NCBI GenBank assembly: GCA_902595715.1
Contig: CACJRI010000003.1
Coordinates: forward strand, 5,583-69,582
DNA from: an uncultured SAR86 cluster bacterium
GTDB taxonomy: Bacteria > Pseudomonadota > Gammaproteobacteria > Magnimaribacterales > AG-339-G14
Direction of reading: 5' to 3'
DNA: 64,000 nucleotides
Below the pieces are notes generated by a model. It saw only the letters and a list, made by a program, of their open reading frames with translations, was not told the origin of the DNA and searched no databases. This document shows positions 31,186 through 61,214 of the stretch, one piece after another. Each line of letters starts with the position of its first letter. Within the stretch, counting starts at the first letter, position 1. Position numbers and translations under genes: made by a program.

Positions 31186-32202
31186 TTGAAAACTTTTAGT
31201 GACTACATAAACCATCTAAAAAAAAATCAATATTCTTGGTTAATTACCGGAGCAGGGGGATTCATAGGCTCTAATCTAGTTAATTTTTTGCTTGGGTTAA
31301 ATCAAAGAGTAGTTGGGTTAGATAACTTTTCATTGGGTATCAAAGAAGAATTATTAAATTTAACTAAAAACTATGAGAATAATCTATTTACTCTTGTCGA
31401 AGGAGATATTAATGATAAAAAGACTTGTATTTTAGCTTTAAAGAAAGTGGATTTTGCTTTACATCATGCAGCTCTTGGATCCGTTCCAAGATCAATTTCA
31501 GATCCCTTTAGCTCAAATGAAGCAAACATTTCAGGTTTTTTAAATATGTTAATTTCTGCAAGAGACTCTAATGTTAAAAATTTTATTTATGCTAGTTCAA
31601 GTTCTGCATATGGCGATCATGAAGCTTTACCTAAAGTAGAAGACGTTATAGGAAAACCTAAAAATCCATACTCTATCACTAAATATGTAAATGAACTTTA
31701 TGCAAACACTTTTGAGGAACATTACGGTTTCAAATCCATTGGTCTCAGATATTTTAATGTTTTTGGACCAAGGCAGAGGGAAAATGGCGATTATGCTGCA
31801 GTCATACCAAAATGGATTAAAAATATTCTAAATAGACAAGATATAGAAATTTATGGAGACGGAGAGACATCTAGAGATTTTTGCTATATAGAAAATGCAA
31901 TACAAGCCAATATAATTTCAGCTTTATCTAAAAATGAAATTGCCAAGGGCCAGGTATATAATATTTCTGTTGGCGATCAGACAACTTTGAATAATCTATT
32001 TTCTATGATTCATAATAATATTGAAAATTCTATTGGTGAAAATATTAAAATAAATCCGATTTATAAAGATTTCAGAGCTGGTGATATTAGACACTCAAGA
32101 GCAGATATATCTAAAGCAAAAAAATTATTAAATTATTCTCCTTCTCATAACGTTGAAAAGGGAATAAAAGAAACTGTTAACTGGTATATAAATAAGAAAT
32201 AA
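31186..32202 (+). CDS. wbpP: UDP-GlcNAc(A) C4-epimerase (WbpP/TviC/CapN type)
   Basis: TTG start. Has WLITGAGGFIGSNL, the SDR catalytic YSITKYVNE (YxxxK) and SRDFCYIENAIQANI. Confidence 0.82.
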   Translation: MKTFSDYINHLKKNQYSWLITGAGGFIGSNLVNFLLGLNQRVVGLDNFSLGIKEELLNLTKNYENNLFTLVEGDINDKKTCILALKKVDFALHHAALGSVPRSISDPFSSNEANISGFLNMLISARDSNVKNFIYASSSSAYGDHEALPKVEDVIGKPKNPYSITKYVNELYANTFEEHYGFKSIGLRYFNVFGPRQRENGDYAAVIPKWIKNILNRQDIEIYGDGETSRDFCYIENAIQANIISALSKNEIAKGQVYNISVGDQTTLNNLFSMIHNNIENSIGENIKINPIYKDFRAGDIRHSRADISKAKKLLNYSPSHNVEKGIKETVNWYINKK

Positions 32203-32204
32203 CA

Positions 32205-33182
32205 ATGAGAGTTTTGATTACAGGAGCTGATGGGTTTATTGGTTCACATTTAACTGAAGCTCTCTACAGCGAGGGTCATCAGATCAGAGCTCTTTGTCAG
32301 TATAATTCATTTAATAATTGGGGTTGGCTAGAAGATATTTCTTGCAAAAACGATATCGAGATATTTTCTGGTGATATCAGAGACCCTTACTATTGCGAAG
32401 AATTAGTTTCTGGAGTTGATATAGTTTTTCACCTTGCTGCTTTGATTGCTATTCCTTATTCTTATGTATCTCCTCAAAGTTATGTTGAAACGAATATACA
32501 GGGAACGTTAAACATTTGTCAGGCCTCTATAAAAAACAAAGTAAGTAGAGTATTGCATACTTCAACAAGTGAAGTTTATGGGACAGCTAAATACGTTCCT
32601 ATTGATGAAGACCATCCATTACAACCACAGTCTCCATATAGCGCCAGTAAGATTGGAGCAGATGCAATAGCCATGAGTTTTTTTCATTCCTTCAACTTGC
32701 CCGTTACGGTTGTAAGGCCTTTCAATACCTACGGACCCAGACAGTCTGCTAGGGCTGTCCTACCAACAATCATAACTCAAATTGCAAATGGTGCTAAAGA
32801 GATCAGCTTAGGTGACACGACGCCTACCAGAGACTTTACTTATGTAGAAGATACATGTTCTGGCTTTATAAAACTATCTTCATGCGATGATTCCATTGGA
32901 GAGACAGTAAATTTAGGATCAAATTCTGAGATAAGTATTTCAGATGCATTGGATATTATAAAAAATTTGATGAAAAGCGATGTTAATTTTATTTTAGATA
33001 AAGAAAGGATAAGGCCAAAAAATTCAGAGGTACATAGGTTATGGAGTGATAATTCCAAATTAAGAGAGTTGACTGATTTTTTCCCAAATACTTCTATCGA
33101 AGAAGGATTGAAGAAAACGATAGATTGGATCTTGATTCCAGAGAACCTATCGAGATATAAATCTGAAATTTATAATGTTTGA
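32205..33182 (+). CDS. legB: NDP-GlcNAc 4,6-dehydratase, LegB-like (extended SDR)
   Basis: 325 aa. MRVLITGADGFIGSHLTEAL...IRALCQYNSFNNWGWLEDI...FHLAALIAIPYSY, catalytic YSASK. From memory, the N-terminal layout matches Campylobacter Cj1319/LegB-type dehydratases. A DegT aminotransferase follows. Confidence 0.65.
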   Translation: MRVLITGADGFIGSHLTEALYSEGHQIRALCQYNSFNNWGWLEDISCKNDIEIFSGDIRDPYYCEELVSGVDIVFHLAALIAIPYSYVSPQSYVETNIQGTLNICQASIKNKVSRVLHTSTSEVYGTAKYVPIDEDHPLQPQSPYSASKIGADAIAMSFFHSFNLPVTVVRPFNTYGPRQSARAVLPTIITQIANGAKEISLGDTTPTRDFTYVEDTCSGFIKLSSCDDSIGETVNLGSNSEISISDALDIIKNLMKSDVNFILDKERIRPKNSEVHRLWSDNSKLRELTDFFPNTSIEEGLKKTIDWILIPENLSRYKSEIYNV

Positions 33183-34326
33183 GGACCTTGTTAAATTTAT
33201 AAGAGATTTATATCAGACTAATTCTTTTATCCCTCTTCATGAGCCACAGTTTTTAGGGAAGGAAAAAGAATATTTACTTGATGTTATAGACTCAACATTT
33301 GTTTCTAGTGTTGGTAAATCAGTAGATACATTTGAAGATAGGATAAGTAATTTTACCGGCATAAAATATGCAACAGCTACTGTAAATTGCACCTCTGCAA
33401 TTCATCTTTCGTTACTCTTGGCTGGAGTTAAGGAAGAAGACGAAGTTATAACTCAGTCTTTTAATTTTATTGCTGGCGCTAATGCTATTTCTTATTGCAG
33501 AGCAGATCCAGTATTCGTCGATATTGATAGAGACAGTCTTACAATGTCACCTATTAAATTAGAAAATTTTTTAAAAACAAATTATGAAATTAGAGAAGAT
33601 GGCAGATGTTGGAATAGAGTTACTAATAAAAGATTGGTGGCATGTTTGCCTATGAATTCTTATGGATTTCCTACTGATATAAATGGACTAAAAAAAATAT
33701 GTGATGATTTTCATATAAAGTTAATTGAAGATTCAGCTGAATCATTAGGAAGTTTTTGCAAGAGCAGGCACACAGGATCAGAATCAATCCTTTCTACCCT
33801 AAGTTTTAATGGAAACAAGATCATTACCACAGGGGGTGGAGGCATGATTCTTACTAACGATAAAAACTTACACAATAAAGCAAAGCATTTGTCTACTACC
33901 GCTAAATTGCCTCATAGGTGGGAATTCAATCATGATGAAATAGGATTTAATTTCAGAATGCCAAATCTCAATGCTGCACTAGGTTTGGCACAACTTGAGA
34001 TGATAGAAGATTTTATAATTAGCAAAAGAGATATTGCCTTAAAGTATCAAGAATGGGGAATAAAAAATAATTTGGTTTTTATAAAAGAACAAGAAGGTTC
34101 TAAATCTAATTATTGGTTAAATTGTCTAATGACAGAGGACCGTCATGAAAGAGACAGCTTATTAGAATACACTAATTCAAATAATGTCATGACTCGGCCC
34201 TCTTGGACTCCTTTGCATTTGTTAGGAATGTATGAGAAGAATTTTAAATCTGATTTAAAAGATACTGTTTGGGTTCACGAAAGACTAATTAATTTGCCCA
34301 GTTCGCCCATCTTAGAGCTCTTATGA
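33175..34326 (+). CDS. legC: DegT/DnrJ/EryC1-family PLP aminotransferase, LegC-like
   Basis: 383 aa. The DegT-family layout includes LSFNGNKIITTGGGGMILTND (PLP-lysine region) and GFNFRMPNLNAALGLAQL. Confidence 0.7.
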   Translation: MFEDLVKFIRDLYQTNSFIPLHEPQFLGKEKEYLLDVIDSTFVSSVGKSVDTFEDRISNFTGIKYATATVNCTSAIHLSLLLAGVKEEDEVITQSFNFIAGANAISYCRADPVFVDIDRDSLTMSPIKLENFLKTNYEIREDGRCWNRVTNKRLVACLPMNSYGFPTDINGLKKICDDFHIKLIEDSAESLGSFCKSRHTGSESILSTLSFNGNKIITTGGGGMILTNDKNLHNKAKHLSTTAKLPHRWEFNHDEIGFNFRMPNLNAALGLAQLEMIEDFIISKRDIALKYQEWGIKNNLVFIKEQEGSKSNYWLNCLMTEDRHERDSLLEYTNSNNVMTRPSWTPLHLLGMYEKNFKSDLKDTVWVHERLINLPSSPILELL

Positions 34327-35207
34327 AAATACTTTTAGCTGGTTCAGAGGGTTTCATTGGGAAAGCGTTTCAAGATAATTTATCTAAACATTTCGAAATA
34401 ATATGCACTGGGAGAAATTTTACAAAAGAAAATAAAACTCATATCAAGATAGATTTAGTTCTTGATGACTTAAATAAACTTCCTGACGATATTGATATTA
34501 TTGTCAATCTTGCTTCAAAACAACCCTCTCAAATTCAAGATTCTTGGGATGATTTTTACAAAGGTAATGTTATATCAACATTAAAATTATGGGATTATGC
34601 GAGGGAAATAGGTGCTAAAAAATTTATCTATATATCAAGCACTTCTTTGTTTAATCAGAGCTCGCCAAGTAATAAATTAAGTCATGATTCTATTGCCTGT
34701 CCCCTTAGTGAATACGGTCTAACTAAATATATTAGTGAGATACTTTTAAAAATGAGGTCAGAGGATGAAAATATCCAGACAATAATATTGAGATTCCCTT
34801 CAGTTTTTGGTGACGGCCATAAAGGTGGCTTAGTTAAAACTTTTTATGACTTAGCTGTAGAAAATAAAACTATAGATGTTTTTAATAATGGAAAAATTTA
34901 TAGAAATTTACTTTTTAAATCGGATGCTGTTTCAGCCATAAAGAAATGTATAGAAAATGAAACATTAGAAAATTTCGAAATTTTTATGATTGGAAGTAGC
35001 GACTCAATGCAGTCAAAAGAAATAGCAAAAAAAATTATAAAGTTGACTAAATCGAAATCGCGAATAAATCTTGTAAGCAAGCCGTCTCCTGTTGACTCAG
35101 ATATCTTTTTAGATTTAGAAAAATCCATAAAAAAATTAAACTTTAAACCATCTTCTATTGAGCATGGACTAAAATGTTTCCTAGAAAGCATGAATAATGA
35201 AATATAG
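34323..35207 (+). CDS. NAD-dependent sugar epimerase/reductase (extended SDR)
   Basis: 294 aa. Has MKILLAGSEGFIGKAF and the catalytic YGLTKYISE (YxxxK). The substrate is unknown. Confidence 0.7.
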   Translation: MKILLAGSEGFIGKAFQDNLSKHFEIICTGRNFTKENKTHIKIDLVLDDLNKLPDDIDIIVNLASKQPSQIQDSWDDFYKGNVISTLKLWDYAREIGAKKFIYISSTSLFNQSSPSNKLSHDSIACPLSEYGLTKYISEILLKMRSEDENIQTIILRFPSVFGDGHKGGLVKTFYDLAVENKTIDVFNNGKIYRNLLFKSDAVSAIKKCIENETLENFEIFMIGSSDSMQSKEIAKKIIKLTKSKSRINLVSKPSPVDSDIFLDLEKSIKKLNFKPSSIEHGLKCFLESMNNEI

Positions 35208-36366
35208 AACATCTTCACCTCATTTTCCTAAGGAAGATATAGAGGAGATTCTTCCTAAAATATCAGAAATCTTGGAGGGAAAAGGCCTTTTAAGTATGGG
35301 AGATAATGTTAAAGAATTTGAGTCCTCCTTCTCATCTTTCGTGGGCTCACGAGCAGCAGTAGCAACTAATTCTTGTTCTAGTGCTTTAGAAATTTCTTTA
35401 AATGTCCTTGGCGTTGGCTCTGGAGATGAGGTTATAGTTCCAACACAAACTTTTATTGCAACGGGATCTTCTGTAGTTAAAGTTGGAGCTAAGCCAATAT
35501 TCTGCGAAATAAATAAAAATTTTTTGATAGATTTTGAAGATTTAAAAAAGAAAATTAATAAACATACAAAAGCTGTAGTTATTGTTCATTTTGCTGGTTT
35601 AATCCACGAAGATATATTGAATATAAGAAAGTTTCTTAATGAAAAAGGCATTTTTTTAATAGAAGATGCTGCCCATGCAATTGGCTCTTCTTTGAATGGT
35701 ATTAAGGCTGGGAACTTTGGTGATTTGTCCTGTTTCTCTTTTTTTTCAACGAAAAATATGACAACTGGGGAAGGAGGCATGATCACTTCAAATAACATTG
35801 ATCTTTCAAAACTTTGTTCAAGTATTCGAAATAGAGGTTTAGACCTAGACTCATCTTCTGAGCAATTTATCAACATTGGTAGCAACAGCAGAATGACAGA
35901 GATTCAAGCTTTGCTTGGAATTTATCAACTAAAAAGAATTCAAGAATTCAATTTACATAGAAATAGGATTGCAGAAATTTACAATCAAGAACTTAATTCC
36001 TTTTTTGACTCAAACATTCTATCAAGACACACACAATCTAAAGATAATGTATCTTCTTACTGGAAGTATTGGATTTCACTTGAAGAAGGTTACTTCGAGG
36101 CTAGTGATAGAATTAAGATAAAAGAAGAGATGAATGCTTTATCTATTCCTGTAGATTGGGCCTACAGTCCTTTACTTCATTTACAACCAGTATTTAAAAA
36201 AATGTATGATATCAGCGAGGGTTATCTCCCTTTCTCTGAAGAAATGTCAAAAAGGCACATTTGCCTACCTATTCATGCATTGATCAGTGAAGAAGATGCA
36301 GTTTTCATAATAAAAAAATTTTCTGAAATAGTCTCAAAGTTAACGCAAGTTAATAACAAAAAATAA
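35197..36366 (+). CDS. second DegT/DnrJ/EryC1-family PLP aminotransferase
   Basis: 389 aa. Has FSFFSTKNMTTGEGGMITSN (PLP-lysine region), IEDAAHAIGS and SRMTEIQALLGIYQLKR. Confidence 0.8.
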   Translation: MKYRTSSPHFPKEDIEEILPKISEILEGKGLLSMGDNVKEFESSFSSFVGSRAAVATNSCSSALEISLNVLGVGSGDEVIVPTQTFIATGSSVVKVGAKPIFCEINKNFLIDFEDLKKKINKHTKAVVIVHFAGLIHEDILNIRKFLNEKGIFLIEDAAHAIGSSLNGIKAGNFGDLSCFSFFSTKNMTTGEGGMITSNNIDLSKLCSSIRNRGLDLDSSSEQFINIGSNSRMTEIQALLGIYQLKRIQEFNLHRNRIAEIYNQELNSFFDSNILSRHTQSKDNVSSYWKYWISLEEGYFEASDRIKIKEEMNALSIPVDWAYSPLLHLQPVFKKMYDISEGYLPFSEEMSKRHICLPIHALISEEDAVFIIKKFSEIVSKLTQVNNKK

Positions 36367-36369
36367 TTA

Positions 36370-37050
36370 ATGAAATTAAGTATTCATCAAAGTCAATATA
36401 TACCATGGCCAGCATATTTTAAGAAAATAGCTCTTTCAGATAAATTTGTTATTTTAGATGATGTTCAATTTCAAAAGAACGGTGTTCAGAATAGAAACAA
36501 ACTGAGAAATAAAAACGGGGAATTTTGGTTAACAATACCTGTTAAAGGTTCTTTGGGAGATTCCATAAAAGATAAAGAAATTGCTCACGATAAATGGAAA
36601 AAGAAGCATTTTCAGTCTATGTCTCAATCTTATTCAAAGTCACCATTTTGGGATTCCCTGAAAGATGAGATTGAAGCTTTATATTCTCTAGAAACTACTA
36701 AGTTAAATGATATAAATATCTTCTTTATAAAATTTATAATTTCTAAATTAGAAATTGATACTGAAATAATTATTTCTTCGAATGAAGATTTTAGCGGTAA
36801 AAAATCAGACTTAATCCTAAATATATGTAGTAACTTTAAAGCATCTAAGTATTTGAGCGGTACAGGAGCTAAAGATTATTTAGATATTGACAGTTTTAAG
36901 GAAAAAGGAATCATTGTAGAGTTTATGAAGTCGTTGCCAGCTATCTACACTCAAATACATGGTGATTTTATGCCCGGTCTTTCTATTATTGATATGATGA
37001 TGAACACTCCTTCTGAAGAGATAAGAAAATATCTATACGAAGAGAATTAA
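36370..37050 (+). CDS. WbqC-family protein (uncharacterised glycan-cluster family)
   Basis: 226 aa. The N-terminus is MKLSIHQSQYIPWPAYFKKIALSDKFVILDDVQFQKNGVQNRNKL, typical of WbqC-like proteins. Confidence 0.7.
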   Translation: MKLSIHQSQYIPWPAYFKKIALSDKFVILDDVQFQKNGVQNRNKLRNKNGEFWLTIPVKGSLGDSIKDKEIAHDKWKKKHFQSMSQSYSKSPFWDSLKDEIEALYSLETTKLNDINIFFIKFIISKLEIDTEIIISSNEDFSGKKSDLILNICSNFKASKYLSGTGAKDYLDIDSFKEKGIIVEFMKSLPAIYTQIHGDFMPGLSIIDMMMNTPSEEIRKYLYEEN

Positions 37051-37054
37051 GTCA

Positions 37055-38224
37055 ATGGCTAAGAAGATAAAGAAAATACTAGCTGTTACAGGAATAAGAT
37101 CTGAGTATGACATTTTATTTCCTGTAATAGATTCACTAAGAAAGCATAAATCTTTTCAGGTTCAACTGGTAGTTTGTGGGGCACACTTATCCGATTGGCA
37201 TGGAGATACTTTAAAAGATATTGAATCAGATAAGTTCGATGTCGTTGAAAAAATTGATTATCTTTTAATGACTAATAGAAAAACTCAAAGAGCAAAGGGA
37301 ATAGGCAATTTAATTTCTTCACTAACTCAAACGGTTGACCGTATCAAGCCAGATTTTATTCTGTACGTTGGTGATAGAGAAGAGAGTATCGCTTGTTCGA
37401 TAGTAGCAAACTATATGAATGTTTTAGCAGTTCATATAGGCGGGGGAGATTCGGTATACGGTAATGCAGATGATCCTATTAGATTTGCTTGTAGCGAGCT
37501 TGCACACGTTCATTTTACCACCTCACAACAGTATGCTGATAATCTCATAAAGATAGGTGAAGAACCAAGGCGGGTTTTTTTTAGTGGCAATCCGGCCTTA
37601 AAAAACATAAAAGACGTTCCTTCCATTTCAAAGAAAGAAATTTCAAAGAAGCTCGATTTTAATCTCAATAAATATGCTGTGATAATCAAACATCCCTTAT
37701 CCTCTTCTAAAGAAGAATCTTATTATCAGATGAAAACTACTTTAGAAGCAGTAGGTGAATTCACAAAGGAAAGAAATATTGAGGCTGTTGGCATATTTCC
37801 AAACACTGATCCTGGCTCCTATGACATATTAAGAGCAATAAAAGAAGAGGAAAGTAATTCAATGAAATTCTTTAAAAATCTCCCTAGAAATATTTTCGTA
37901 AACCTAATAAGGCATGCTTCATTGTTAATTGGAAATTCCAGTATGGGAATATTAGAAGCACCTTACTATAAATTACCAGTAATAAATGTAGGAGATCGCC
38001 AACTTGGAAGGTTAAATGCAGGAAATGTAAAGTTTGTAAATTATGATAAGAAAATTATCAAATCCGCTATGGAAGAGGCCATATTCAACTCAACTTATAT
38101 AGAAAAAATAAAGTCTTTAAAAAATCCATATGGCGGTGACGATGCTCACGAAAGAATAGTTGAAGTTCTTGAAAATCTAAACTTGGAAGACAAAACCTGG
38201 TATATAAAACAAAAGGTGTTTTAG
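37055..38224 (+). CDS. neuC: hydrolysing NDP-sugar 2-epimerase (NeuC/LegG type)
   Basis: 389 aa. Has ILAVTGIRSEYDILFPVI and YVGDREESIACSIVANYMNVLAVHIGGGD, and ends with NPYGGDDAHERIVEVL. Confidence 0.82.
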   Translation: MAKKIKKILAVTGIRSEYDILFPVIDSLRKHKSFQVQLVVCGAHLSDWHGDTLKDIESDKFDVVEKIDYLLMTNRKTQRAKGIGNLISSLTQTVDRIKPDFILYVGDREESIACSIVANYMNVLAVHIGGGDSVYGNADDPIRFACSELAHVHFTTSQQYADNLIKIGEEPRRVFFSGNPALKNIKDVPSISKKEISKKLDFNLNKYAVIIKHPLSSSKEESYYQMKTTLEAVGEFTKERNIEAVGIFPNTDPGSYDILRAIKEEESNSMKFFKNLPRNIFVNLIRHASLLIGNSSMGILEAPYYKLPVINVGDRQLGRLNAGNVKFVNYDKKIIKSAMEEAIFNSTYIEKIKSLKNPYGGDDAHERIVEVLENLNLEDKTWYIKQKVF

Positions 38225-38226
38225 TA

Positions 38227-38895
38227 ATGAAAAAAGTTATTGTCATTTCTCCACATCCAGACGATGAAACTTTAGGTTGTGGAGGGACACTTCTAAAGCA
38301 TATTTCAAATGGAGATCAAGTTTCTTGGGTCATCGTTACAGACATGAAAAAGATGCCAAATCTAAATAAAAACACATTAAACCAAAGAAATAAAGAAATT
38401 ATAGATGTCTCTAAAAGTTATGGTTTTCACAAAACATTCGAACTTGGGTTCCCCGCAACTCTCTTAGATACATTGCCAAAAAGAGATTTAATCTCATCAT
38501 TAGCTGATGTTATAAACGAGATAAAACCTGAAATTTTATACCTTCCTTATGAGAATGATGTTCATACAGACCATGAACAAGTTTTTAAAGCAGCTTCTGC
38601 ATTCACTAAATCTTTTCGTTTCCCTTTCATAAAAGACATTTATGTTTATCACACTTTATCTGAGACAGATTTCAATCTAGATCCAAAAAAATCTAGCTTC
38701 AAACCAAATTACTTTGTTGATATCACCGAACACTTTGATGAGAAGTTAGCCATTATGAGAATCTATGAGTCTGAATTAGGCAATCATCCTTTTCCTAGGT
38801 CTGTTGAAGCGATTAAGTCTCACGCAACCTTAATGGGAAGTATTTCGAATACTAGTTATGCTGAGGGCTTTGTCATCATTAAGCAAATAAGATGA
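38227..38895 (+). CDS. PIG-L/LmbE-family N-deacetylase
   Basis: 222 aa. Has the zinc-site motif VISPHPDDETLGCGGTL and a downstream HTDHEQV. Confidence 0.8.
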   Translation: MKKVIVISPHPDDETLGCGGTLLKHISNGDQVSWVIVTDMKKMPNLNKNTLNQRNKEIIDVSKSYGFHKTFELGFPATLLDTLPKRDLISSLADVINEIKPEILYLPYENDVHTDHEQVFKAASAFTKSFRFPFIKDIYVYHTLSETDFNLDPKKSSFKPNYFVDITEHFDEKLAIMRIYESELGNHPFPRSVEAIKSHATLMGSISNTSYAEGFVIIKQIR

Positions 38896-39968
38896 GCACA
38901 ATTGTTATTGCAGAGGCCGGCGTTAATCATAATGGCGACTTGCAGAAAGCTTTCCAGCTTGTTGATGCAGCATCAGAAGCCGGTGCTGATATTGTAAAAT
39001 TCCAAATTTTTAAAGCTGAAAATTTAGCAACCACCTCGGCAGAAAAGGCAAATTACCAAAAGAAAACCTCAAATTCATCTGAGTCACAATTTTCTATGCT
39101 TAAAAAGCTTGAACTTGATAATGAATCTTATTTTAAGTTACAAGAATATTGTCATCAGAAAGAAATTGATTTTCTATTATCTGCCTTCGATTTTGATAGT
39201 TTGAAATTTTTATTAGACGAACTTAGATTAAAAATTCTTAAAATACCTTCAGGAGACATTACTAATGCTCCATTGATTTTATCTCATGCCGTCTCAGGCA
39301 GGGATATCATTCTTTCAACAGGCATGTCTAATTTAAATGAAATAGAAACAGCATTATCAGTTATTTCATATGGATATTTAAACCAAACCATCAATTTAAA
39401 ACCTTCAATTGAAGATTTTAAAAAAGCCTATAATTCCTCTGAAGGAAAAGATTTATTAGAAGAAAAAGTTATTCTTTTGCATTGTACAACTGAATATCCA
39501 GCGCCTCTAAAAGATATCAACCTTGATGCCATGAATACCATAAAAGATCATTTTAAATTAAAAGTGGGGTATTCAGATCATAGTGATGGGATTTTAGTTC
39601 CTATCGCCGCAGCTGCTTTAGGAGCAAAAATTATAGAAAAACATATAACGTTAAACAAAGATGATATAGGTCCGGATCATAGGGCATCTTTGGAGCCAGA
39701 TCAGTTCAAAAGAATGATTTCAAGTATTAGAAAAGTAGAGTTACTAAAAGGCGATGGCATAAAAAAACCAAGAGAATCTGAGTCATCAAATATTATGATT
39801 GCTAGGAAGAGTATTTTTGCTAAAAAAATAATCAAGGCGGGGGAAATTTTCTCTGAAGAAAATATTGCTTTAAAAAGACCTTCTAAAGGGCTCGACCCGA
39901 TAATGTATTGGGAAGTTTTAGGTCAGGAGGCTACTAGAGATTACGAAGTAGACGAGGCAATTGAATGA
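38892..39968 (+). CDS. neuB: nonulosonic acid synthase (NeuB/LegI type)
   Basis: 358 aa. Has IAEAGVNHNGDL...GADIVKFQ...KIPSGDITN...LHCTTEYPAP...GYSDHS, followed by a C-terminal SAF domain. Confidence 0.88.
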   Translation: MSTIVIAEAGVNHNGDLQKAFQLVDAASEAGADIVKFQIFKAENLATTSAEKANYQKKTSNSSESQFSMLKKLELDNESYFKLQEYCHQKEIDFLLSAFDFDSLKFLLDELRLKILKIPSGDITNAPLILSHAVSGRDIILSTGMSNLNEIETALSVISYGYLNQTINLKPSIEDFKKAYNSSEGKDLLEEKVILLHCTTEYPAPLKDINLDAMNTIKDHFKLKVGYSDHSDGILVPIAAAALGAKIIEKHITLNKDDIGPDHRASLEPDQFKRMISSIRKVELLKGDGIKKPRESESSNIMIARKSIFAKKIIKAGEIFSEENIALKRPSKGLDPIMYWEVLGQEATRDYEVDEAIE

Positions 39969-40885
39969 AAATAGGTTATTTTGCAGATGGTCCTTGGTCC
40001 CATAAAGCTTTAGAGAGAATAGTTTCTGATAGGAGATTAGAGATATCTTTTATTGTTCCAAGATATGATTCTCAAGATTCTGTTCTCAAGGAATGGGCAA
40101 AAAAACTAGGAGTTGATTTTATTCCTATGAAAAATGTGAATTCAAAGGACTCTATAAATAAATTAAAAAGCTATAAAGCAGACATATTTGTTTCTATGTC
40201 ATTTGATCAGATTATAAAGAAGGAAGTTATACATTTACCGGAAAAAGGTTTTATTAATTGTCACGCAGGAGCCTTGCCATTTTATAGAGGCAGAAACGTA
40301 CTTAATTGGGTATTAATAAATGATGAAAAAGAATTCGGAGTAACGGTTCATTACATTGATGAAGGGATTGATACAGGCGATATAATTTTACAAAACAAGA
40401 GTTTGATAACTGACGATGATTCTTATAAAACTTTATTAGAAAGAGCTATCGACCTTTGTGATAAGACCCTCTACGAAGCTATTGTAAAAATCTTAAATGG
40501 TGAGAACCAAAGAATTAAACAAAAGGAGATAGATCCTGTGGGAAGTTATTTTAGAATCAGAAAAGAAGGTGATGAATGGATCAACTGGGAATGGACATCA
40601 AGAAAAATATTTAATTTCATCAGAGCAATTACAGATCCAGGGCCTTGTGCACAAACCATGTTTAAAGAGAATCTTATCAAGATAAGAAACTCTAAAGAAA
40701 TTCCTAATTCTCCCAAATACGTTTGCGTTCCAGGGGAAATAGTGGGCAAAACAGACGATTCTTTAATTTTAAAGACTGGAGACAGCACGCTGTCAATAAA
40801 TTCTTATGATAGTTTAGATAAAAAGAATGATATGGCGCTCAGAGCTCTAAGAATTGGCAATCGCTTATATAAACCAAATCATTAA
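39965..40885 (+). CDS. formyltransferase (Fmt/ArnA-N-like) for a sugar amino group
   Basis: 306 aa. The Formyl_trans_N core is FINCHAGALPFYRGRNVLNWVLINDEKEFGVTVHYIDEGIDTGDII (N/H/D catalytic residues). A C-terminal Fmt-C-like domain follows. Confidence 0.8.
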   Translation: MKIGYFADGPWSHKALERIVSDRRLEISFIVPRYDSQDSVLKEWAKKLGVDFIPMKNVNSKDSINKLKSYKADIFVSMSFDQIIKKEVIHLPEKGFINCHAGALPFYRGRNVLNWVLINDEKEFGVTVHYIDEGIDTGDIILQNKSLITDDDSYKTLLERAIDLCDKTLYEAIVKILNGENQRIKQKEIDPVGSYFRIRKEGDEWINWEWTSRKIFNFIRAITDPGPCAQTMFKENLIKIRNSKEIPNSPKYVCVPGEIVGKTDDSLILKTGDSTLSINSYDSLDKKNDMALRALRIGNRLYKPNH

Positions 40886-40915
40886 TTTTATTTATAATCT
40901 ACGAGGAGAAAATAA

Positions 40916-41974
40916 TTGACTAAAATTAATTGGATAGCATCTACCTTGCTCAAAGATGAGTCTATGGAGAAAGCAATAAAAAATCTTAATCTTCAATCAA
41001 CAAGGATTGTTCTTGTAATTGATAAAAATCAAAAATTATTAGGAACGATCACAGATGGAGATATCAGAAGAGCTATACTCGAAAACAAGTCAATGGATAC
41101 TCCTTTATGTGACTTCATGAACCCTAATCCCACCACAGCCTCTGAAAATGAAGATATGGATTCAATATTAAAATTAATGCAAAAAAATGATCTTATCCAG
41201 ATTCCTATTGTCGACTCCAAGTCTAAAATTGTTGGCCTTGAAACTCTTCATCACTTAATCGAAAATGAGACAAAAAATAATCCCGTATTTTTAATGGCGG
41301 GAGGGTTTGGCAAGCGGTTAGCACCTTTAACCGATGAGATGCCTAAACCTCTTCTTAAAATTGGCTCTAAACCCATATTAGAAATCATAATAGATAACTT
41401 CATAGATCAAGGATTTAATAATTTTTATATCTCTACCCATTTTCTTGCAGAAAAGATAGTTGATTTCTTTGGAGATGGAACTCTTAAAGGAGTTTCTATT
41501 GAATACATACATGAAAAAAAACCTATGGGAACTGCTGGATCATTAGGACTATTGCCTCAGGAGAAGATAGACTCGCCAATAATTATGATGAATGGAGATT
41601 TATTATCTAAAGTCAATTTTTCAGATCTCTTAAGTTATCATAATGATAAACCCGGAGAAATCACCATGTGTATCTCTGAATATGAATTTCAAGTGCCTTA
41701 TGGCGTAATTAAAACCGATAAAGAAAGGCTCAAAGGAATTGATGAAAAACCTTCTCAGAAATTTTTTATAAATGCTGGTATTTATGTTGTTGAGCCATCT
41801 GTCTTAAAAAAGGTTAATAACAATGAATATATCGACATGCCAACTTTGTTAGATGAAATGATAAAAGATGGTATTGAAATAAATGTTTTTCCTATTCATG
41901 AGTACTGGCTCGATGTTGGCAAAATCGATGATTTTAATATGGCTAAAAAGGAAATAAACAAAGATGACCAATAA
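40916..41974 (+). CDS. CBS-domain sugar-1-phosphate nucleotidyltransferase (PtmE-like)
   Basis: TTG start, 352 aa. An N-terminal CBS pair (VIDKNQKLLGTITDGDIRRA; IPIVDSKSKIVGL) is followed by the nucleotidyltransferase motif LMAGGFGKRLAPLTDEMPKPLLKIG. Confidence 0.8.
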   Translation: MTKINWIASTLLKDESMEKAIKNLNLQSTRIVLVIDKNQKLLGTITDGDIRRAILENKSMDTPLCDFMNPNPTTASENEDMDSILKLMQKNDLIQIPIVDSKSKIVGLETLHHLIENETKNNPVFLMAGGFGKRLAPLTDEMPKPLLKIGSKPILEIIIDNFIDQGFNNFYISTHFLAEKIVDFFGDGTLKGVSIEYIHEKKPMGTAGSLGLLPQEKIDSPIIMMNGDLLSKVNFSDLLSYHNDKPGEITMCISEYEFQVPYGVIKTDKERLKGIDEKPSQKFFINAGIYVVEPSVLKKVNNNEYIDMPTLLDEMIKDGIEINVFPIHEYWLDVGKIDDFNMAKKEINKDDQ

Positions 41975-42965
41975 TGAAAAATACTTGGTTGTTGGAGCGG
42001 GGAACATATCTAAAAAACATATCGATAATATAAAGAGACTAAAAAGAAACAGCTTGGTATTCAATTTGTCTTCTTCAGGTCGGAATATTGATCCTCAATC
42101 TAATAATGCAGATTATTTATTAAGAAACTTTCAAGAAGCTCATGAACATAAATTTAGTGCAGTCATTATTGCTTCGCCAGCTAGTTTTCACATAGAACAT
42201 GCATTGTTTTTTTCTTCTTTAAACATACCCTTGCTAATTGAAAAGCCTTTGTCTGACAATTTAAAAAAATATGAAGAAGCAAGTAATACTCTTTTGGATT
42301 TAAATGAAAAAATAAAAATTGCTTACAATCTTAGATATCTCAATTCGATGATTTTTTTTAAGAATTTTTTACGTGAAAATTTATTGGGAAAAATATATTC
42401 GGTTCAATCAGAAGTAGGGCAAAACCTAATTAATTGGAGACCAAAAAAAAATTATAAACATACTGTTTCTTCAAACAAAAAACTTGGCGGAGGCGCTCTT
42501 TTAGAGTTAAGTCATGAATTGGATTACCTAACTTGGATTTTTGGCGACATTCAAAGTGTTTTCTGCAAACTTTCTAATACCAACCATTTCGATATTGATG
42601 TTGAAGATAATGTTGAATCTATTCTTCAAACAAAAAGTGGCTTATGCATCAACTTACATATGGATTTTTTACAAAATAAAACTATAAGAAAATGTAAGGT
42701 TATAGGAGAAAAGGGCACTTTAGATTTTGATCTTTTAGAGAATAAAATTATTCACTATCAAGAAAATGAAAAAATAGAGATTATCTACAACGAGAATGTT
42801 TTTGATCAGAATCAGCCTTATATTGACATGCTTCAAGATTTCTTAAATCCAGATACAGAGAAACTAAATAATCTTGCAAGCCTAGATGAAGCCAAATATG
42901 TTTTAGCAATCATAGAGGCTATGAGAGTTTCATCTAAAGAAAATTCTCTAATCAAGGTAGATTGA
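41964..42965 (+). CDS. Gfo/Idh/MocA-family oxidoreductase (PtmF-like)
   Basis: 333 aa. Has the N-terminal Rossmann motif YLVVGAGNISKKHIDNI and EKPL (LLIEKPLSDN). Confidence 0.75.
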   Translation: MTNNEKYLVVGAGNISKKHIDNIKRLKRNSLVFNLSSSGRNIDPQSNNADYLLRNFQEAHEHKFSAVIIASPASFHIEHALFFSSLNIPLLIEKPLSDNLKKYEEASNTLLDLNEKIKIAYNLRYLNSMIFFKNFLRENLLGKIYSVQSEVGQNLINWRPKKNYKHTVSSNKKLGGGALLELSHELDYLTWIFGDIQSVFCKLSNTNHFDIDVEDNVESILQTKSGLCINLHMDFLQNKTIRKCKVIGEKGTLDFDLLENKIIHYQENEKIEIIYNENVFDQNQPYIDMLQDFLNPDTEKLNNLASLDEAKYVLAIIEAMRVSSKENSLIKVD

Positions 42966-42968
42966 ATA

Positions 42969-43661
42969 ATGAAAACATTTGCATTTATATTTGCTAGGGG
43001 GGGTTCTAAAGGGCTTCCAAAAAAAAATATTTTAAATCTAGGAGGGCTTCCTCTTATTGCTCACTCCATTCTTTCAGCTAAAAATAATCAAATGATTGAT
43101 GATGTTTTTGTTTCAACAGACTCAGATGAAATTGCAGAAGTTTCTAACAAATTTGAAGCTAAAATTATAAAGAGACCAAAAGAACTTGCACAAGATGATT
43201 CTTCAGAATGGTTATCTTGGAATCACGCAATCAATTATGTTCATGATCAGGGGTATGTTTTTAACAGATTTATAAGCTTGCCTGCAACTGCACCCCTTAG
43301 AGCTGATGAGGATATTAATAAATGTCTCTTAGCTTTTAAAGGAAATGTTGATGTAGTTATAACTGTAACTCCAGCAAATCGTAATCCTAGTTTTAATATG
43401 ATTAAAAGAGATGCTAAAGGCATGAGTAATTTAATTTTAAAATCTGACATCGCAAGAAGACAAGATGCTCCTTTAGTATATGACATGACTACTGTGGCAT
43501 ATGTGACTACACCAGAATATATTTTAAGTAAAAAAAATCTTTTTGAAGGAAATACTTACTCGGTTATCATTCCTAAAGATCGAGCTATAGACATAGATGA
43601 CAGAGTAGACTTTATTTTAGCAGAGAGGTTATTCGAAATAAGAAATGATTTTACAAAATAA
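42969..43661 (+). CDS. neuA: CMP-nonulosonic acid synthetase (acylneuraminate cytidylyltransferase, NeuA/LegF type)
   Basis: 230 aa. FAFIFARGGSKGLPKKNILNLGGLPLIAHSI is the CTP-transferase-3 N-terminus. Also has ATAPLR. Confidence 0.88.
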   Translation: MKTFAFIFARGGSKGLPKKNILNLGGLPLIAHSILSAKNNQMIDDVFVSTDSDEIAEVSNKFEAKIIKRPKELAQDDSSEWLSWNHAINYVHDQGYVFNRFISLPATAPLRADEDINKCLLAFKGNVDVVITVTPANRNPSFNMIKRDAKGMSNLILKSDIARRQDAPLVYDMTTVAYVTTPEYILSKKNLFEGNTYSVIIPKDRAIDIDDRVDFILAERLFEIRNDFTK

Positions 43662-44409
43662 TACTGTATTAGTTGTAGGAGCCAATGGCAGAATTGGATC
43701 AGTTATCTCAAAAAGATTGTTAGAGGAAGGTGCTAATGTAATAGCTGCAGATATAACTCTACAAAATCTCAAAAATAATGAATTTGGTGTATACAAAGAT
43801 CAATTTCTCAAAATTGAGATGGACATCACTAATAAAGAATCCATAGAAAAAGCATTTGAATTTGCTTTATCCAAGTTTGGTAAAATAGACTCTGCTATCA
43901 ATACTTCATATCCAAAAGGTAGTGAGTATGGAAAACATTTCTTTGATGTTTCTTATGATTCTTTTACTGAAAATCTATCTCTTCATGTAGGAGGATTTTT
44001 CTTATTTATGCAAATTTGTGCTAAATACTCGTTATCCTCAAACCAGAAGTTTTCCTTGCTAAATTTCTCTTCAATATATGGCAATATAGCGCCAAGATTT
44101 GAAATTTATGAAAATACTGACATGACTACTCCCGTTGAGTACGCAGCTATGAAATCGGCAATTCAACATTTATCTCAGTACGTGAGCGCTTTTACAAAGA
44201 ACTCAAAATTCAGGGTAAATTGTATTAGTCCTGGAGGAATATCAGATAATCAAGATGCTAAATTCTTAGCCAAATATAAAAAATTTTCTAGGGAAAAAGG
44301 CATGTTAGATGTTGAAGATCTTTTGGGTACCGTCTTATATTTGATTTCAGAATCCTCTGAATATGTATGTGGTCAAAATATTATTGTTGATGATGGTTTT
44401 GTGGTTTAA
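43645..44409 (+). CDS. short-chain dehydrogenase/reductase (PtmA-like)
   Basis: 254 aa. Has VLVVGANGRIGSVISKRL and the catalytic YAAMKSAIQHL (YxxxK). Confidence 0.75.
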   Translation: MILQNNTVLVVGANGRIGSVISKRLLEEGANVIAADITLQNLKNNEFGVYKDQFLKIEMDITNKESIEKAFEFALSKFGKIDSAINTSYPKGSEYGKHFFDVSYDSFTENLSLHVGGFFLFMQICAKYSLSSNQKFSLLNFSSIYGNIAPRFEIYENTDMTTPVEYAAMKSAIQHLSQYVSAFTKNSKFRVNCISPGGISDNQDAKFLAKYKKFSREKGMLDVEDLLGTVLYLISESSEYVCGQNIIVDDGFVV

Positions 44410-44429: not shown

Positions 44430-45068
44430 ATGTCATCAAAACAAAGAGTAGTCATAATTGACAGAAAGAATGCAAACATAAATTCCCTGAAGAATGCAAT
44501 TCAACACGTAAGCGATTTTCATTTATCTGTTTCAAGTGATATGAAAGAAATTCAAAAAGCTGATTTTTTAGTTTTAGCTGGTGTGGGCGCTTTTGGTGAT
44601 GGCATGGCTGATCTTATAGAAAAAGATCTGGTTGATGGGCTTATAAATCAAGCGCTTATTAAAAAAAAGCCTTTTCTTGGCATATGTTTAGGTATGCAGA
44701 TGCTTTTTTCTGAATCAGAAGAAAAAGGGATTAATAAAGGCCTAAATTTAATTGAAGGCAAAGTTAAATATCTTGATCTTGATCCTTCTTATAGAATTCC
44801 TCATGTTGGATGGAATAACATTGAATACGAAGAAGATAAAAAAATATTCAATGGTTTAGGGCCTGATAAGAACTTTTATTTTGTGCATAGCCTTTCAGCT
44901 CAATGTGATGAGAAAAATATAATTGCTAAAGTTGACTATGATAAGAAAATAACCGCAGCAGTCCAAAAAGATAATATTTTAGGCTTTCAATTTCATCCAG
45001 AAAAAAGTCAAGGGAATGGGATGATTCTTTTAAGAAACTTTTTATCAGGTAGATACTACGATGCTTAA
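44430..45068 (+). CDS. hisH: HisH-like glutamine amidotransferase subunit dedicated to glycan synthesis (WbuY type)
   Basis: 212 aa. The class-I GATase triad is present: nucleophile in PFLGICLGMQML and H/E in FQFHPEKS. Its context is next to a HisF-like gene and WbpG-like amidotransferases, not other his genes. Confidence 0.82.
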   Translation: MSSKQRVVIIDRKNANINSLKNAIQHVSDFHLSVSSDMKEIQKADFLVLAGVGAFGDGMADLIEKDLVDGLINQALIKKKPFLGICLGMQMLFSESEEKGINKGLNLIEGKVKYLDLDPSYRIPHVGWNNIEYEEDKKIFNGLGPDKNFYFVHSLSAQCDEKNIIAKVDYDKKITAAVQKDNILGFQFHPEKSQGNGMILLRNFLSGRYYDA

Positions 45069-52690: not shown

Positions 52691-52712
52691 TTAAATTCTT
52701 CAATAAGAAAGC

Positions 52713-54155: not shown

Positions 54156-54198
54156 TAACAAATATTATTCAATCTAGATATAATAGAGGCTTGAGAAC

Positions 54199-54891: not shown

Positions 54892-54909
54892 TACATTAAT
54901 GTATTAAAC

Positions 54910-58228: not shown

Positions 58229-58230
58229 AA

Positions 58231-59943: not shown

Positions 59944-60010
59944 AAATATAGCCAAAACTGAGGTTAATCCTCTGCAAATAGGTATTCCTGTTAGGAAAGT
60001 TTTCATCCTT

Positions 60011-61213: not shown

Positions 61214-61214
61214 G

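Follow-up and report, generated by a model that had tools for sequence, protein, structure and literature searches.

The DNA studied here is a stretch of 64,000 nucleotides (nt), called the window throughout, from an uncultured SAR86 cluster bacterium (contig CACJRI010000003.1). Between its positions 32205 and 44409 lie 13 co-directional open reading frames (ORFs) which appear to form the sugar-precursor part of an O-antigen-type locus. Both ends of this interval are exact ORF boundaries, the start of a LegB-type dehydratase gene and the end of a gene for a PtmA-like short-chain dehydrogenase/reductase (SDR), and the stop and start codons in between mostly overlap or lie 2–30 nt apart. An earlier note on this DNA had listed eight gene types in the interval, and all eight are present, with family matches far beyond chance. 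Its inventory fell short in that five of the 13 genes (SDR2, DegT2, WbqC, PIG-L and the formyltransferase) went unmentioned, and in that the sugar block runs on past 44409, to at least 48259, with HisH/HisF-like genes and two WbuX amidotransferases. On the assignments given below the block probably, though far from certainly, serves the synthesis of a cytidine monophosphate (CMP)-activated member of the legionaminic acid (Leg) family, that is, a 5,7-diamino-3,5,7,9-tetradeoxy-nonulosonic acid, with non-standard N-substituents and further tailoring. The genes of the interval are as follows (aa, amino acids; NDP, nucleoside diphosphate; GlcNAc, N-acetylglucosamine; PLP, pyridoxal phosphate).

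32205-33182, +, LegB-type NAD-dependent NDP-GlcNAc 4,6-dehydratase, 325 aa (TIGR04180, 500.9 bits, cutoff 475)
33175-34326, +, LegC-family PLP aminotransferase, 383 aa (TIGR04181, 482.7 bits, cutoff 420)
34323-35207, +, SDR2, extended SDR, GalE/4-epimerase-like, 294 aa (PF01370, 98 bits; RmlD_sub_bind, 65 bits)
35197-36366, +, DegT2, second DegT aminotransferase, 389 aa (PF01041, 337 bits)
36370-37050, +, WbqC-family protein, candidate BshC-like ligase, 226 aa (PF08889, 239 bits)
37055-38224, +, NeuC/LegG, hydrolysing NDP-sugar 2-epimerase, 389 aa (TIGR03568, 371 bits, cutoff 236)
38227-38895, +, PIG-L/LmbE-family de-N-acetylase, 222 aa (PF02585, 90 bits)
38892-39968, +, NeuB/LegI-type nonulosonic acid synthase with SAF domain, 358 aa (TIGR03569, 467 bits, cutoff 400)
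39965-40885, +, Fmt/ArnA-like sugar N-formyltransferase, two-domain, 306 aa (PF00551, 91 bits; PF02911, 46 bits)
40916-41974, +, CBS-pair plus sugar-1-phosphate nucleotidyltransferase (PtmE/LgaF/Elg6-like), 352 aa (NTP_transferase, 127 bits; CBS, 55 bits)
41964-42965, +, Gfo/Idh/MocA oxidoreductase (ElaA/PtmF-like), 333 aa (Pfam GFO_IDH_MocA N and C domains)
42969-43661, +, CMP-nonulosonate synthetase, ElaB-like cytidylyltransferase, 230 aa (CTP_transf_3, 70 bits)
43645-44409, +, classical SDR, ElaC or Escherichia coli O61 type, candidate C8 keto-reductase, 254 aa (NF006619, 319 bits, cutoff 255)

LegB is 55–68% identical to the LegB genes of 24 related loci and reaches only 70 bits with the PseB model, whose cutoff is 408. 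LegC carries the lysine motif SFNGNK and is 47–48% identical to the proteins which PGAP names LegC in E. coli O61, O161 and NT1F31. These three, with ECZP248, are the PGAP-annotated E. coli Leg-type clusters used as references; they were reached from a blastn comparison of the window with E. coli genomes, in which the sole match was 143 nt of LegC. The best match of NeuC in the PDB is the hydrolysing 2-epimerase for guanosine or uridine diphosphate (GDP/UDP)-N,N'-diacetylbacillosamine (5ZLR, 184 bits), compared with 67 bits for SiaA (6VLB) of meningococcal sialic acid synthesis.

NeuB possesses PF03102 (299 bits) and SAF (24.3 bits, cutoff 21) domains and fails the PseI model (247 bits, cutoff 340). 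It is 54–55% identical to the NeuB proteins of E. coli O61 and NT1F31 and 45% identical to that of O161. A PDB search with this protein did not discriminate, SpsE, PseI and NmNeuB all scoring alike at 150–166 bits, and TIGR03569 is unable to separate Leg synthases from those for N-acetylneuraminic acid (Neu5Ac), so that it is LegB and LegC, both present, which make this distinction. The context of NeuB homologs was compared in 61 related loci. Where identity was at least 40% (34 loci), NeuC stood alongside in 32, the CBS-nucleotidyltransferase in 31 and LegC in 28; below 40% NeuC accompanied none of the 27. From this split by locus context, taken with the model cutoffs, the synthase and the dehydratase would be placed outside the Pse and Neu5Ac clades.

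The remaining models for the pseudaminic acid (Pse) pathway fail as well, PseC giving 201 and 241 bits on the two aminotransferases (cutoff 424) and PseF 118 bits (cutoff 206), and PseG and PseH found no match among the window proteins in the curated model search. Since PseB, PseC, PseI and PseF are all under their cutoffs and PseG and PseH are missing, a Pse pathway is excluded on the evidence of these models. The preference of the earlier note for a legionaminic-type over a pseudaminic-type sugar, and its observation that a NeuC-type epimerase stands in place of a PseG hydrolase, were thus both borne out. A plain sialic acid (Neu5Ac) cluster is likewise excluded, to judge from family membership, because LegB and LegC are present and NeuC is nearest to the diacetylbacillosamine 2-epimerase rather than to SiaA. 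Assignment of the predicted product to the 5,7-diamino nonulosonic acids of the Leg family is well supported.

Formyltransferase, epimerase-like trio and amidotransferases

The formyltransferase gene begins immediately after neuB, its start overlapping the neuB stop by 4 nt. By eye the N98/H100/D146 motif is present, in HAGALPFYRG and DEGIDTGD, and the PDB relatives include ArnA, GDP-perosamine formyltransferase and PseJ (E 1e-13 for PseJ). Orthologs with 79–90% identity are kept in sister lineages. Homologs at 53–66% identity are numerous, and those whose context was examined hold the equal position in nonulosonate clusters; because of this the window protein, as far as its relatives tell, is not the housekeeping Fmt. 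In Leptospira santarosai (locus L087) the order is NeuC-NeuB-Fmt-CBS-nucleotidyltransferase-cytidylyltransferase, without a hexapeptide acetyltransferase, and in Limnospira fusiformis (L088) it is PIG-L-NeuB-Fmt-small hexapeptide protein-CBS-nucleotidyltransferase-Gfo-cytidylyltransferase-SDR. Both Fmt proteins are 61–62% identical to that of the window.

The slot between NeuB and the CBS-nucleotidyltransferase is occupied by a PglD_N plus Hexapep acetyltransferase in Paenibacillus, Alteromonas, two Deltaproteobacteria, Marinomonas and E. coli O61, ECZP248 and NT1F31. When seven PglD/LegH-type acetyltransferases from related loci, 30–52% identical to one another and drawn from across phyla, were used as tblastn queries against the 64-kb window, nothing was found (best E 0.39), nor was a FemAB homolog found there. 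E. coli O161 makes Leg5Ac7Ala, and Lea3 has been named as its alanyltransferase (PMC7685785). The acyl-step protein of O161 belongs to the FemA/FemB family; its gene (L092, 12135-13127) lies between those for LegC and NeuB, while the O61 acetyltransferase gene (L094, 10371-11018) and the window formyltransferase gene directly follow neuB. A swappable acyl step of this kind may predict the substituent on N7.

The canonical route relies on LegH for acetylation of the 4-amino group; with no LegH-type gene in the 64 kb and a formyltransferase in the acyl slot, an N-formyl group on the predicted product is likely, and plain Leg5Ac7Ac would be an unlikely product. Our preferred reading places the formyl group on N7, the enzyme presumably replacing LegH, rather than on N5 following deacetylation by PIG-L.

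Formyltransferases among nonulosonate genes have precedents in the PseJ route to Pse5Ac7Fo, in Halorubrum sp. PV6 and in Candidatus Kuenenia stuttgartiensis. Halorubrum sp. PV6 makes 5-N-formyl-Leg and has both LegH and, in the cluster, a candidate formyltransferase (PMC6137143). The Leg-type cluster of Ca. K. stuttgartiensis contains a deacetylase and a formyltransferase, and mass spectrometry of the CMP-nonulosonates showed one amine formylated and one free (bioRxiv 10.64898/2026.04.20.719630); in the window, too, a deacetylase gene lies near that for the formyltransferase. Kuenenia and Halorubrum are likened to the window by description and not by sequence comparison. Unlike PseJ, which is short and single-domain, the window enzyme has the two-domain Fmt/ArnA-like form.

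The CBS-nucleotidyltransferase is 45–49% identical to its homologs in E. coli O61, O161 and NT1F31. The earlier note read it as a pointer to a GDP-GlcNAc route; the same type is found in clusters with a dehydratase of the UDP-GlcNAc type, so that by this comparison it is not diagnostic, and only the LegB-type dehydratase argues for GDP. The proposed GDP route is thus only partly supported, and the reading of the Gfo protein and SDR as PtmF and PtmA supply enzymes is weak. The resemblance which the note saw to PtmE, PtmF and PtmA holds for the combined CBS and nucleotidyltransferase architecture of the PtmE-like protein. It does not extend to the SDR, which gives 231 bits with the PtmA model NF050062 (cutoff 350). 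The E. coli O61 SDR, to which it is 49.4% identical, has the same pattern (NF006619, 350 bits; PtmA model, 201 bits).

The Gfo-cytidylyltransferase-SDR trio as a whole is O61-like, the order being identical in E. coli O61 and the identities 37, 49 and 49%. Gfo is 37–38% identical to the proteins in the same position in O61 and ECZP248. The cytidylyltransferase is 48.7% identical to the O61 enzyme as against 36% for O161 and 32% for NT1F31, and the Gfo and SDR genes are absent from the O161 and NT1F31 clusters. The O61 antigen contains the 8-epimer of diacetylated legionaminic acid (8eLeg5Ac7Ac; PMC7685785). In Acinetobacter baumannii, ElaA, ElaB and ElaC have been proposed, from mutants and crystal structures, to 8-epimerize CMP-Leg5,7Ac2 (PMC13656337), and for EpaA/EpaB, a cytidylyltransferase-like/SDR pair, conversion of Pse to 8ePse has been demonstrated (PMC12053666). 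As a PDB search yielded nothing close to the window Gfo or SDR, E. coli O61 serves as a proxy for the A. baumannii Ela proteins. An ElaABC or O61 type of trio is the better guess than a PtmF/PtmA supply function, and by analogy the product probably has the 8-epi (L-glycero-D-galacto) configuration.

The closest overall likeness in gene order is to the 8eLeg systems of E. coli O61 and A. baumannii KL49 (lgaABCDEF plus elaABC; elg genes), which run from an aminotransferase through NeuC, NeuB, the acyl slot, the CBS-nucleotidyltransferase, Gfo and the cytidylyltransferase to the SDR. Identities with O61 are 54% for NeuB, 48% for the nucleotidyltransferase, 37% for Gfo and 49% each for the cytidylyltransferase and SDR. 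These systems have a UDP-GlcNAc 4,6-dehydratase of the Polysacc_synt_2 type in place of LegB and a PglD-type acetyltransferase in the acyl slot where the window has the formyltransferase. They also lack both the SDR2-DegT2-WbqC-PIG-L cassette and WbuX/HisHF, which the window has. With the flagellin Leg pathway of Campylobacter jejuni and C. coli (LegB, C, H, G, I, F; PtmE, F, A; PtmG/H) the window shares LegB, LegC, the CBS-nucleotidyltransferase, the order Gfo-cytidylyltransferase-SDR and an amidotransferase that would form an acetamidino group. Unlike the Campylobacter set it has an SDR under the PtmA cutoff, contains no LegH, maf or flagellin gene, and is a Wzz/Wzx/Wzy polysaccharide locus with an additional formyltransferase and cassette.

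Downstream of the interval the following genes continue the block.

44430-45068, +, HisH-like glutaminase (TIGR01855, 220 bits, cutoff 105)
45061-45870, +, HisF/WbuZ-like cyclase-type subunit (TIGR03572, 272 bits, below the cutoff of 300)
45870-47147 and 47144-48259, +, two paralogous WbuX/PseA-type N-acetyl-sugar amidotransferases (TIGR03573, 373 and 397 bits, cutoff 203)
48293-49714, +, 473-aa protein, possible nonulosonate transferase (no Pfam or NCBIfam match)
49707-51767, +, AT3 plus SGNH O-acyltransferase, OafA-like, 686 aa (PF01757, 105 bits; PF19040, 120 bits)

The HisH/HisF-like pair is co-conserved with the cassette in seven loci, and both WbuX paralogs (47–63% identity) are kept together in seven loci from different phyla. 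From their family one would expect the WbuX pair to convert an N-acetyl to an acetamidino group, as in sugars of the Leg5Am7Ac type. That the 473-aa protein might be the nonulosonate transferase is a guess only; its single-sequence AlphaFold2 (AF2) model was unusable, with a predicted local distance difference test score (pLDDT) of 36. The AT3-SGNH protein, named peptidoglycan/LPS O-acetylase OafA/YrhL in one source, is a candidate O-acetyltransferase. Lag-1 of Legionella, which 8-O-acetylates legionaminic acid, is also an AT3-family enzyme.

The cassette around the WbqC-family protein

Five of the genes recur elsewhere in the order SDR2-DegT2-WbqC-NeuC-PIG-L, namely in Sphingomonas, Azonexus, Burkholderiales, Deltaproteobacteria, Marinamargulisbacteria, a gammaproteobacterial metagenome-assembled genome (MAG) and Marinomonas sp. 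S3726, and HisH-HisF-WbuX-WbuX often follows. The nearest cultured carrier of the full cassette is Marinomonas sp. S3726 (JXYC01000004.1, L090), at 38–61% identity to the window and with the order DegT(LegC)-SDR2-DegT2-WbqC-NeuC-PIG-L-NeuB-[acyl slot]-CBS-nucleotidyltransferase-cytidylyltransferase. It differs from the window in having a Polysacc_synt_2 dehydratase for LegB and a PglD-type acetyltransferase for the formyltransferase, and in lacking the Gfo/SDR pair and WbuX/HisHF.

SDR2 is nearest among solved structures to UDP-glucuronic acid 4-epimerase (6ZL6) and GalE. By eye it has the NAD-binding GxxGxxG motif and a YxxxK motif (YGLTK), and the acid/base glutamate of the dehydratases is absent. 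In related loci it always lies directly upstream of the DegT2 orthologs. DegT2 scores under the cutoffs of the PseC, LegC and WecE models; its nearest solved structure is GDP-perosamine synthase (3BN1/3DR4) and the catalytic lysine is kept, in SFFSTK. About 13 loci have, in the same cassette, an ortholog with 41–55% identity. SDR2 and DegT2 might add a third amino group, provide an alternative amination at C4 or remodel an acyl side chain. We also looked for a link between DegT2 and the second aminotransferase of the Leg clusters of Vibrio vulnificus CMCP6 and Aliivibrio wodanis (PMC7371886); no named Vibrio protein was among the best 120 homologs. The aciABCD genes of Acinetobacter (acinetaminic acid) were considered as a source of the extra genes and rejected, being reported as restricted to A. 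baumannii and of SDR type.

PIG-L has the metal-binding motifs HPDDE and HTDH (by eye), and among NCBIfam models BshB1 matches it best, with 80 bits against a cutoff of 182. A profile search for WbqC, with one genome per species, gave 563 confirmed loci, and gene content within 10 kb of WbqC was counted in 80 that were fetched. PIG-L was present in 67 of these 80, NeuB in 57 and a DegT protein in 52; NeuC, LegB, LegC and the CBS-nucleotidyltransferase were each found in 29–40. In 27 loci (within L028-L089, for example L045 of Methanosarcinales and L062/L086 of Nitrosopelagicus, some of them archaeal MAGs) WbqC and PIG-L lie by a NeuB-like synthase of less than 40% identity, without NeuC. From these NeuC-less loci the pair would be a general accessory of ulosonic acid synthases rather than specific to Leg.

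The WbqC family is large, with 12,733 cluster representatives (50%-identity clusters) at E <= 1e-10, and our literature search turned up no functional study of it. Residues H6, Q7, W13, K19, D30, R42 and K79 of WbqC are invariant. Sequence and profile searches against the PDB gave no match for the window protein, so that only the fold search provided a lead: its AF2 model (pLDDT 96) has BshC (4WBD) as the top Foldseek match (probability 0.99, E 5.5e-3, query TM-score (TMq) 0.48), followed by class-I tRNA-synthetase-like folds. In bacillithiol synthesis by BshB/BshC (and MshB/MshC for mycothiol) a deacetylase of the PIG-L/LmbE family first exposes the 2-amino group on a derivative of GlcNAc, and an acyl (cysteinyl) group is next attached by an enzyme with a Rossmann fold. 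Unlike BshC, with its 540 aa, WbqC has 226 aa, and there is no detectable sequence similarity; moreover the Bsh substrate is GlcNAc-malate, whereas that in the window would be a nucleotide-sugar or nonulosonate. We regard this modelled resemblance as a lead and not as membership.

Three independent WbqC-family representatives (P0587, P0602 and P0623) combine a GNAT acetyltransferase at the N-terminus with WbqC at the C-terminus in one fused protein, a hint, from domain composition, that WbqC may be linked to N-acyl chemistry. In Limnospira, where the cluster has no called WbqC gene, PIG-L is found together with an ATP-grasp ligase, and S-adenosylmethionine (SAM) methyltransferases often flank WbqC. 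The model of the WbqC fold weakly suggests a module in which PIG-L deacetylates the GlcNAc-derived N-acetyl group, the future N5, and WbqC re-acylates it; the likeness of PIG-L to BshB1, the ATP-grasp ligase, the GNAT-WbqC fusions and the flanking methyltransferases would fit such a module. We rejected, for E. coli O161, the idea that WbqC adds the alanyl group in producers of alanyl-Leg, since Lea3 of that strain belongs to the FemA/FemB family. That the cassette constitutes an undescribed nonulosonate tailoring route, in which WbqC acts after PIG-L as a BshC-like ATP-dependent ligase adding an acyl or aminoacyl group while SDR2 and DegT2 remodel this group or add a third nitrogen, is a tentative and rather doubtful proposal.

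Proposed pathway and its rivals

In the pathway which we propose, the CBS-nucleotidyltransferase would supply NDP-GlcNAc, probably as GDP-GlcNAc, which LegB would dehydrate (4,6-dehydration) and LegC aminate at C4. The Fmt-type enzyme, replacing LegH, would formylate the new 4-amino group from N10-formyl-tetrahydrofolate, and this nitrogen would become N7. NeuC/LegG would then remove the nucleotide and invert C2, NeuB/LegI would condense the sugar with phosphoenolpyruvate, and the ElaB-like cytidylyltransferase would form the CMP-sugar. Less certain are four further steps. The Gfo/Idh/MocA protein and the SDR flanking the cytidylyltransferase may oxidize and re-reduce C8 to give the 8-epi configuration, as proposed for ElaABC. 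The two WbuX amidotransferases, with ammonia from the HisH/HisF-like pair, may turn N-acetyl into acetamidino, and the AT3-SGNH protein may O-acetylate the sugar. PIG-L would most likely remove the N-acetyl inherited from GlcNAc, and WbqC, with its BshC-like Rossmann fold, would re-acylate the freed amine. The finished sugar would join a uronic acid of the N-acetylgalactosaminuronic acid (GalNAcA) type in a Wzx/Wzy-type repeat unit. The most likely product would be an N-formylated, probably 8-epi and further tailored member of the Leg family.

Several points weigh against this scheme. Its core steps come from family membership and conserved order, and nucleotide specificity, stereochemistry and the position of each N-substituent are inferred rather than drawn from biochemistry. 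In Campylobacter the Gfo-CMP-SDR order is the same, yet the reported product is Leg rather than 8eLeg. The mechanism of ElaA and ElaC is itself only proposed and not reconstituted (PMC13656337). LegH could be encoded outside the window. Limnospira has its formyltransferase and a small hexapeptide acetyltransferase side by side next to PIG-L, from which the formyltransferase may act on N5 after deacetylation and not on N7. PIG-L and WbuX compete for the same N5-acetyl group, so that the roles assigned to them cannot both be simple; either their steps are ordered or one of them acts on another sugar, for example GalNAcA. The match of WbqC to BshC is weak (TMq 0.48, root-mean-square deviation 9 Å, without sequence similarity), and to our knowledge the chemistry of BshC itself is unproven. 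Finally, Azonexus hydrophilus ZS02 (L027, 1213-17879) has LegB, NeuB, the full cassette, two WbuX genes and HisHF with no LegC ortholog within 10 kb, from which DegT2 may be a C4 aminotransferase.

One might suppose instead an ordinary GDP route of the Campylobacter type, leading to CMP-Leg5Ac7Ac (or Leg5Am7Ac). PtmE, PtmF and PtmA would then provide GDP-GlcNAc, LegH would have its gene elsewhere, and the additional genes would belong to other repeat-unit sugars. LegB, LegC, NeuC and NeuB passing their cutoffs and the presence of the CBS-nucleotidyltransferase fit this, as does the order PtmE-PtmF-LegF-PtmA, which Campylobacter shares; in C. jejuni, moreover, legH lies apart from the other leg genes (SugarBase preprint). 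We nevertheless find it improbable: the SDR is under the PtmA cutoff (231 against 350 bits) and groups with its E. coli O61 counterpart, the cytidylyltransferase resembles the O61 enzyme far more than those of the O161 or lga type, and the five extra genes are interspersed among the core genes, with overlapping stop and start codons. The cassette is furthermore co-conserved with NeuC and NeuB across phyla, and the formyltransferase sits exactly in the acetyltransferase slot. Even harder to sustain is a two-product reading, in which LegB, LegC and the formyltransferase make an NDP-2-acetamido-4-formamido-2,4,6-trideoxyhexose of the bacillosamine type used directly in the repeat unit, with a separate branch to NeuC and NeuB. 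It is true that 4-N-acylated 2-acetamido-4-amino-2,4,6-trideoxyglucose (QuiNAc4N) commonly partners nonulosonic acids in marine O-antigens such as that of Tenacibaculum maritimum (PMC3210612), and the window has two aminotransferases and three extra epimerase/dehydratase-family genes. Leg synthesis itself, however, requires what LegB and LegC make, the genes are intermixed with those for NeuC and NeuB and translationally coupled to them, and the adjacency of NeuB and formyltransferase, with its 4-nt overlap, is conserved in Leptospira and Limnospira, so that this arrangement is hardly to be expected.

The remaining rivals concern the extra enzymes. PIG-L and the formyltransferase might work as a pair on N5, acetyl being swapped for formyl as in Halorubrum or Kuenenia, with N7 acylated otherwise, perhaps by WbqC, or left free. 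A deacetylase and a formyltransferase do occur together in the window, in Elusimicrobia (L018), in Limnospira and in Leptospira (there as Polysacc_deac_1). The one free and one formylated amine of the Kuenenia sugars, the 5-N-formyl-Leg of Halorubrum made in the presence of LegH, and the coexistence of the two transferases in Limnospira all point the same way. This is unlikely all the same, since PIG-L is present in 67 of the 80 WbqC loci and a formyltransferase homolog in only two of them, from which the conserved partner of PIG-L would be WbqC and not the formyltransferase; in addition, the window and Leptospira have no other enzyme to cap the 4-amino group, and the PseJ precedent is a 4-amino formylation. 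SDR2 and DegT2, for their part, might add a third nitrogen, for example by oxidation of a (CMP-)nonulosonate at C8 and transamination to a 5,7,8-triamino sugar like that of T. maritimum, WbqC acylating or bridging the amine. The O-polysaccharide of this organism (formerly Flexibacter maritimum) does contain 8-amino-3,5,7,8,9-pentadeoxynonulosonic acid, a documented natural product (PMC3210612). The kept catalytic lysine of DegT2, the NAD and YxxxK motifs of SDR2 with the dehydratase residues absent, and the constant adjacency of the two genes, in most loci additional to LegB and LegC, are compatible with such a role. Yet the 8-amino sugar is not known to be linked to any gene cluster, no Tenacibaculum locus was among those recovered, SDR2 resembles NDP-hexose 4-epimerases, and the Azonexus locus, with SDR2/DegT2 and no LegC nearby, suggests that DegT2 can be the C4 aminotransferase; we judge this addition decidedly improbable. 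Our preference stays with formylation of N7 by a LegH replacement and with WbqC as the partner of PIG-L.

The surrounding locus and what the finding means

The block is embedded in a series of 31 closely spaced genes, all on a single strand and reaching from Wzz to AsnB, in which every intergenic gap is at most 67 nt. Its other members are listed here.

29028-29870, +, Wzz-like chain-length determinant (PF02706, 24 bits, just under the cutoff of 25.5)
29896-31185, +, TviB-like UDP-GlcNAc 6-dehydrogenase (NF011729, 526 bits)
31186-32202, +, TviC-like 4-epimerase (NF011728, 397 bits)
51785-63095, +, remaining polysaccharide locus (Pfam and NCBIfam matches, here and in the lines below)
within 51785-63095, before the Wzx-like gene, +, epimerase/dehydratase
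52713-54155, +, Wzx-like flippase
54199-58228, +, DUF4956-CotH-VTC trio
58231-59943, +, family-2 glycosyltransferase (GT2)::CDP-alcohol-phosphatidyltransferase fusion
60011-61213, +, Wzy_C-like protein
61215-63095, +, AsnB-like amidotransferase

The scores of the TviB-like and TviC-like proteins are under the equivalog cutoffs of NF011729 and NF011728, yet far above those with any other model, and by these assignments the two genes are the UDP-GalNAcA route. Flagellin or maf-type genes were not found in the 64-kb window; with the polysaccharide genes on either side of the block, this makes placement of the sugar in a repeat unit reasonable. The earlier note had argued for a polysaccharide rather than a flagellin context, and the flanking Wzz, TviB/TviC-like, Wzx-like, Wzy_C and AsnB genes agree with it. 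In the trio at 54199-58228 a DUF4956 protein and a VTC-domain protein are joined by a CotH-kinase-like protein of 866 aa which has a NosD/beta-helix region. The ORF at 58231-59943 has an unusual architecture, with a GT2 and a CDP-alcohol phosphatidyltransferase domain in one 570-aa protein; this fusion suggests that the polymer may carry a phospho-alcohol substituent or linker.

Upstream, the housekeeping genes ubiG, a phosphatase gene, pntAB, gyrA, serC, pheA, hisC, tyrA, aroA, cmk, rpsA (557 aa) and ihfB occur in this order, and the arrangement at 8830-29870 (ubiG ... ihfB ... wzz) resembles the surroundings of the O-specific antigen locus in Pseudomonas aeruginosa. GC content is 0.27–0.37 throughout the window. 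The 90% clusters of GyrA and NadE have co-members named Gammaproteobacteria bacterium, and an identical formyltransferase is found, with gene order unchanged, on at least 23 marine metagenome contigs, TARA Oceans samples included. The description of the source in the earlier note as a low-GC gammaproteobacterium agrees with the GC content, the housekeeping synteny, the cluster names and the marine contigs. Housekeeping proteins (window 1-28978) belong to 90% clusters of 500–900 members, most polysaccharide-locus proteins (29028-63095), with the neighbouring uvrC and aroA products, to clusters of only 10–32. This contrast in cluster size is as expected of a surface-sugar locus that would vary between strains within an abundant lineage.

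The closest genome match (L007, JAYNHP010000009.1, compared with window 26374-47047) is labelled a Flavobacteriales bacterium MAG. An origin in that order was rejected, as the contig has the uvrC (82% aa identity)-pgsA-wzz flank of the window; because of this shared flank it is probable that a low-GC gammaproteobacterial contig was binned wrongly. Nucleotide identity between the two is 92.0% over 17.8 kb of the sugar cluster and only 80.3% in the uvrC-pgsA flank, a pattern which hints at recent exchange of the O-antigen locus among related lineages.

The gene set is a variant of a well-known pathway and not a new kind of system. Nonulosonate clusters are common, the formyl and 8-epi variants have precedents, and the cassette is widespread and not special to this genome, so that current understanding is refined in its annotation rather than overturned. 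How phages, grazers and immune systems recognize a bacterium is governed by the nonulosonic acids on its surface, whose N-substituents determine the surface charge. If the reading is true, the O-antigen of an abundant open-ocean gammaproteobacterium would bear a legionaminic-type sugar, N-formylated and probably 8-epi, with amidino or other re-acylation; should the cassette, N-formylation and 8-epimerization all be read rightly, this nonulosonic acid would be in no structure database so far. The acyl slot after NeuB, filled by an acetyltransferase, a FemAB alanyltransferase or a formyltransferase, would be a swappable tailoring position of use in predicting structures from genomes, and the Gfo/SDR pair would be better read as a signature of 8-epimerases than as PtmF/PtmA precursor supply. 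The point most worth carrying forward is the question of WbqC and PIG-L, a very widespread and uncharacterized partnership with NeuB-type synthases in bacteria and archaea, for which the cassette provides a testable hypothesis that may apply to a large protein family.

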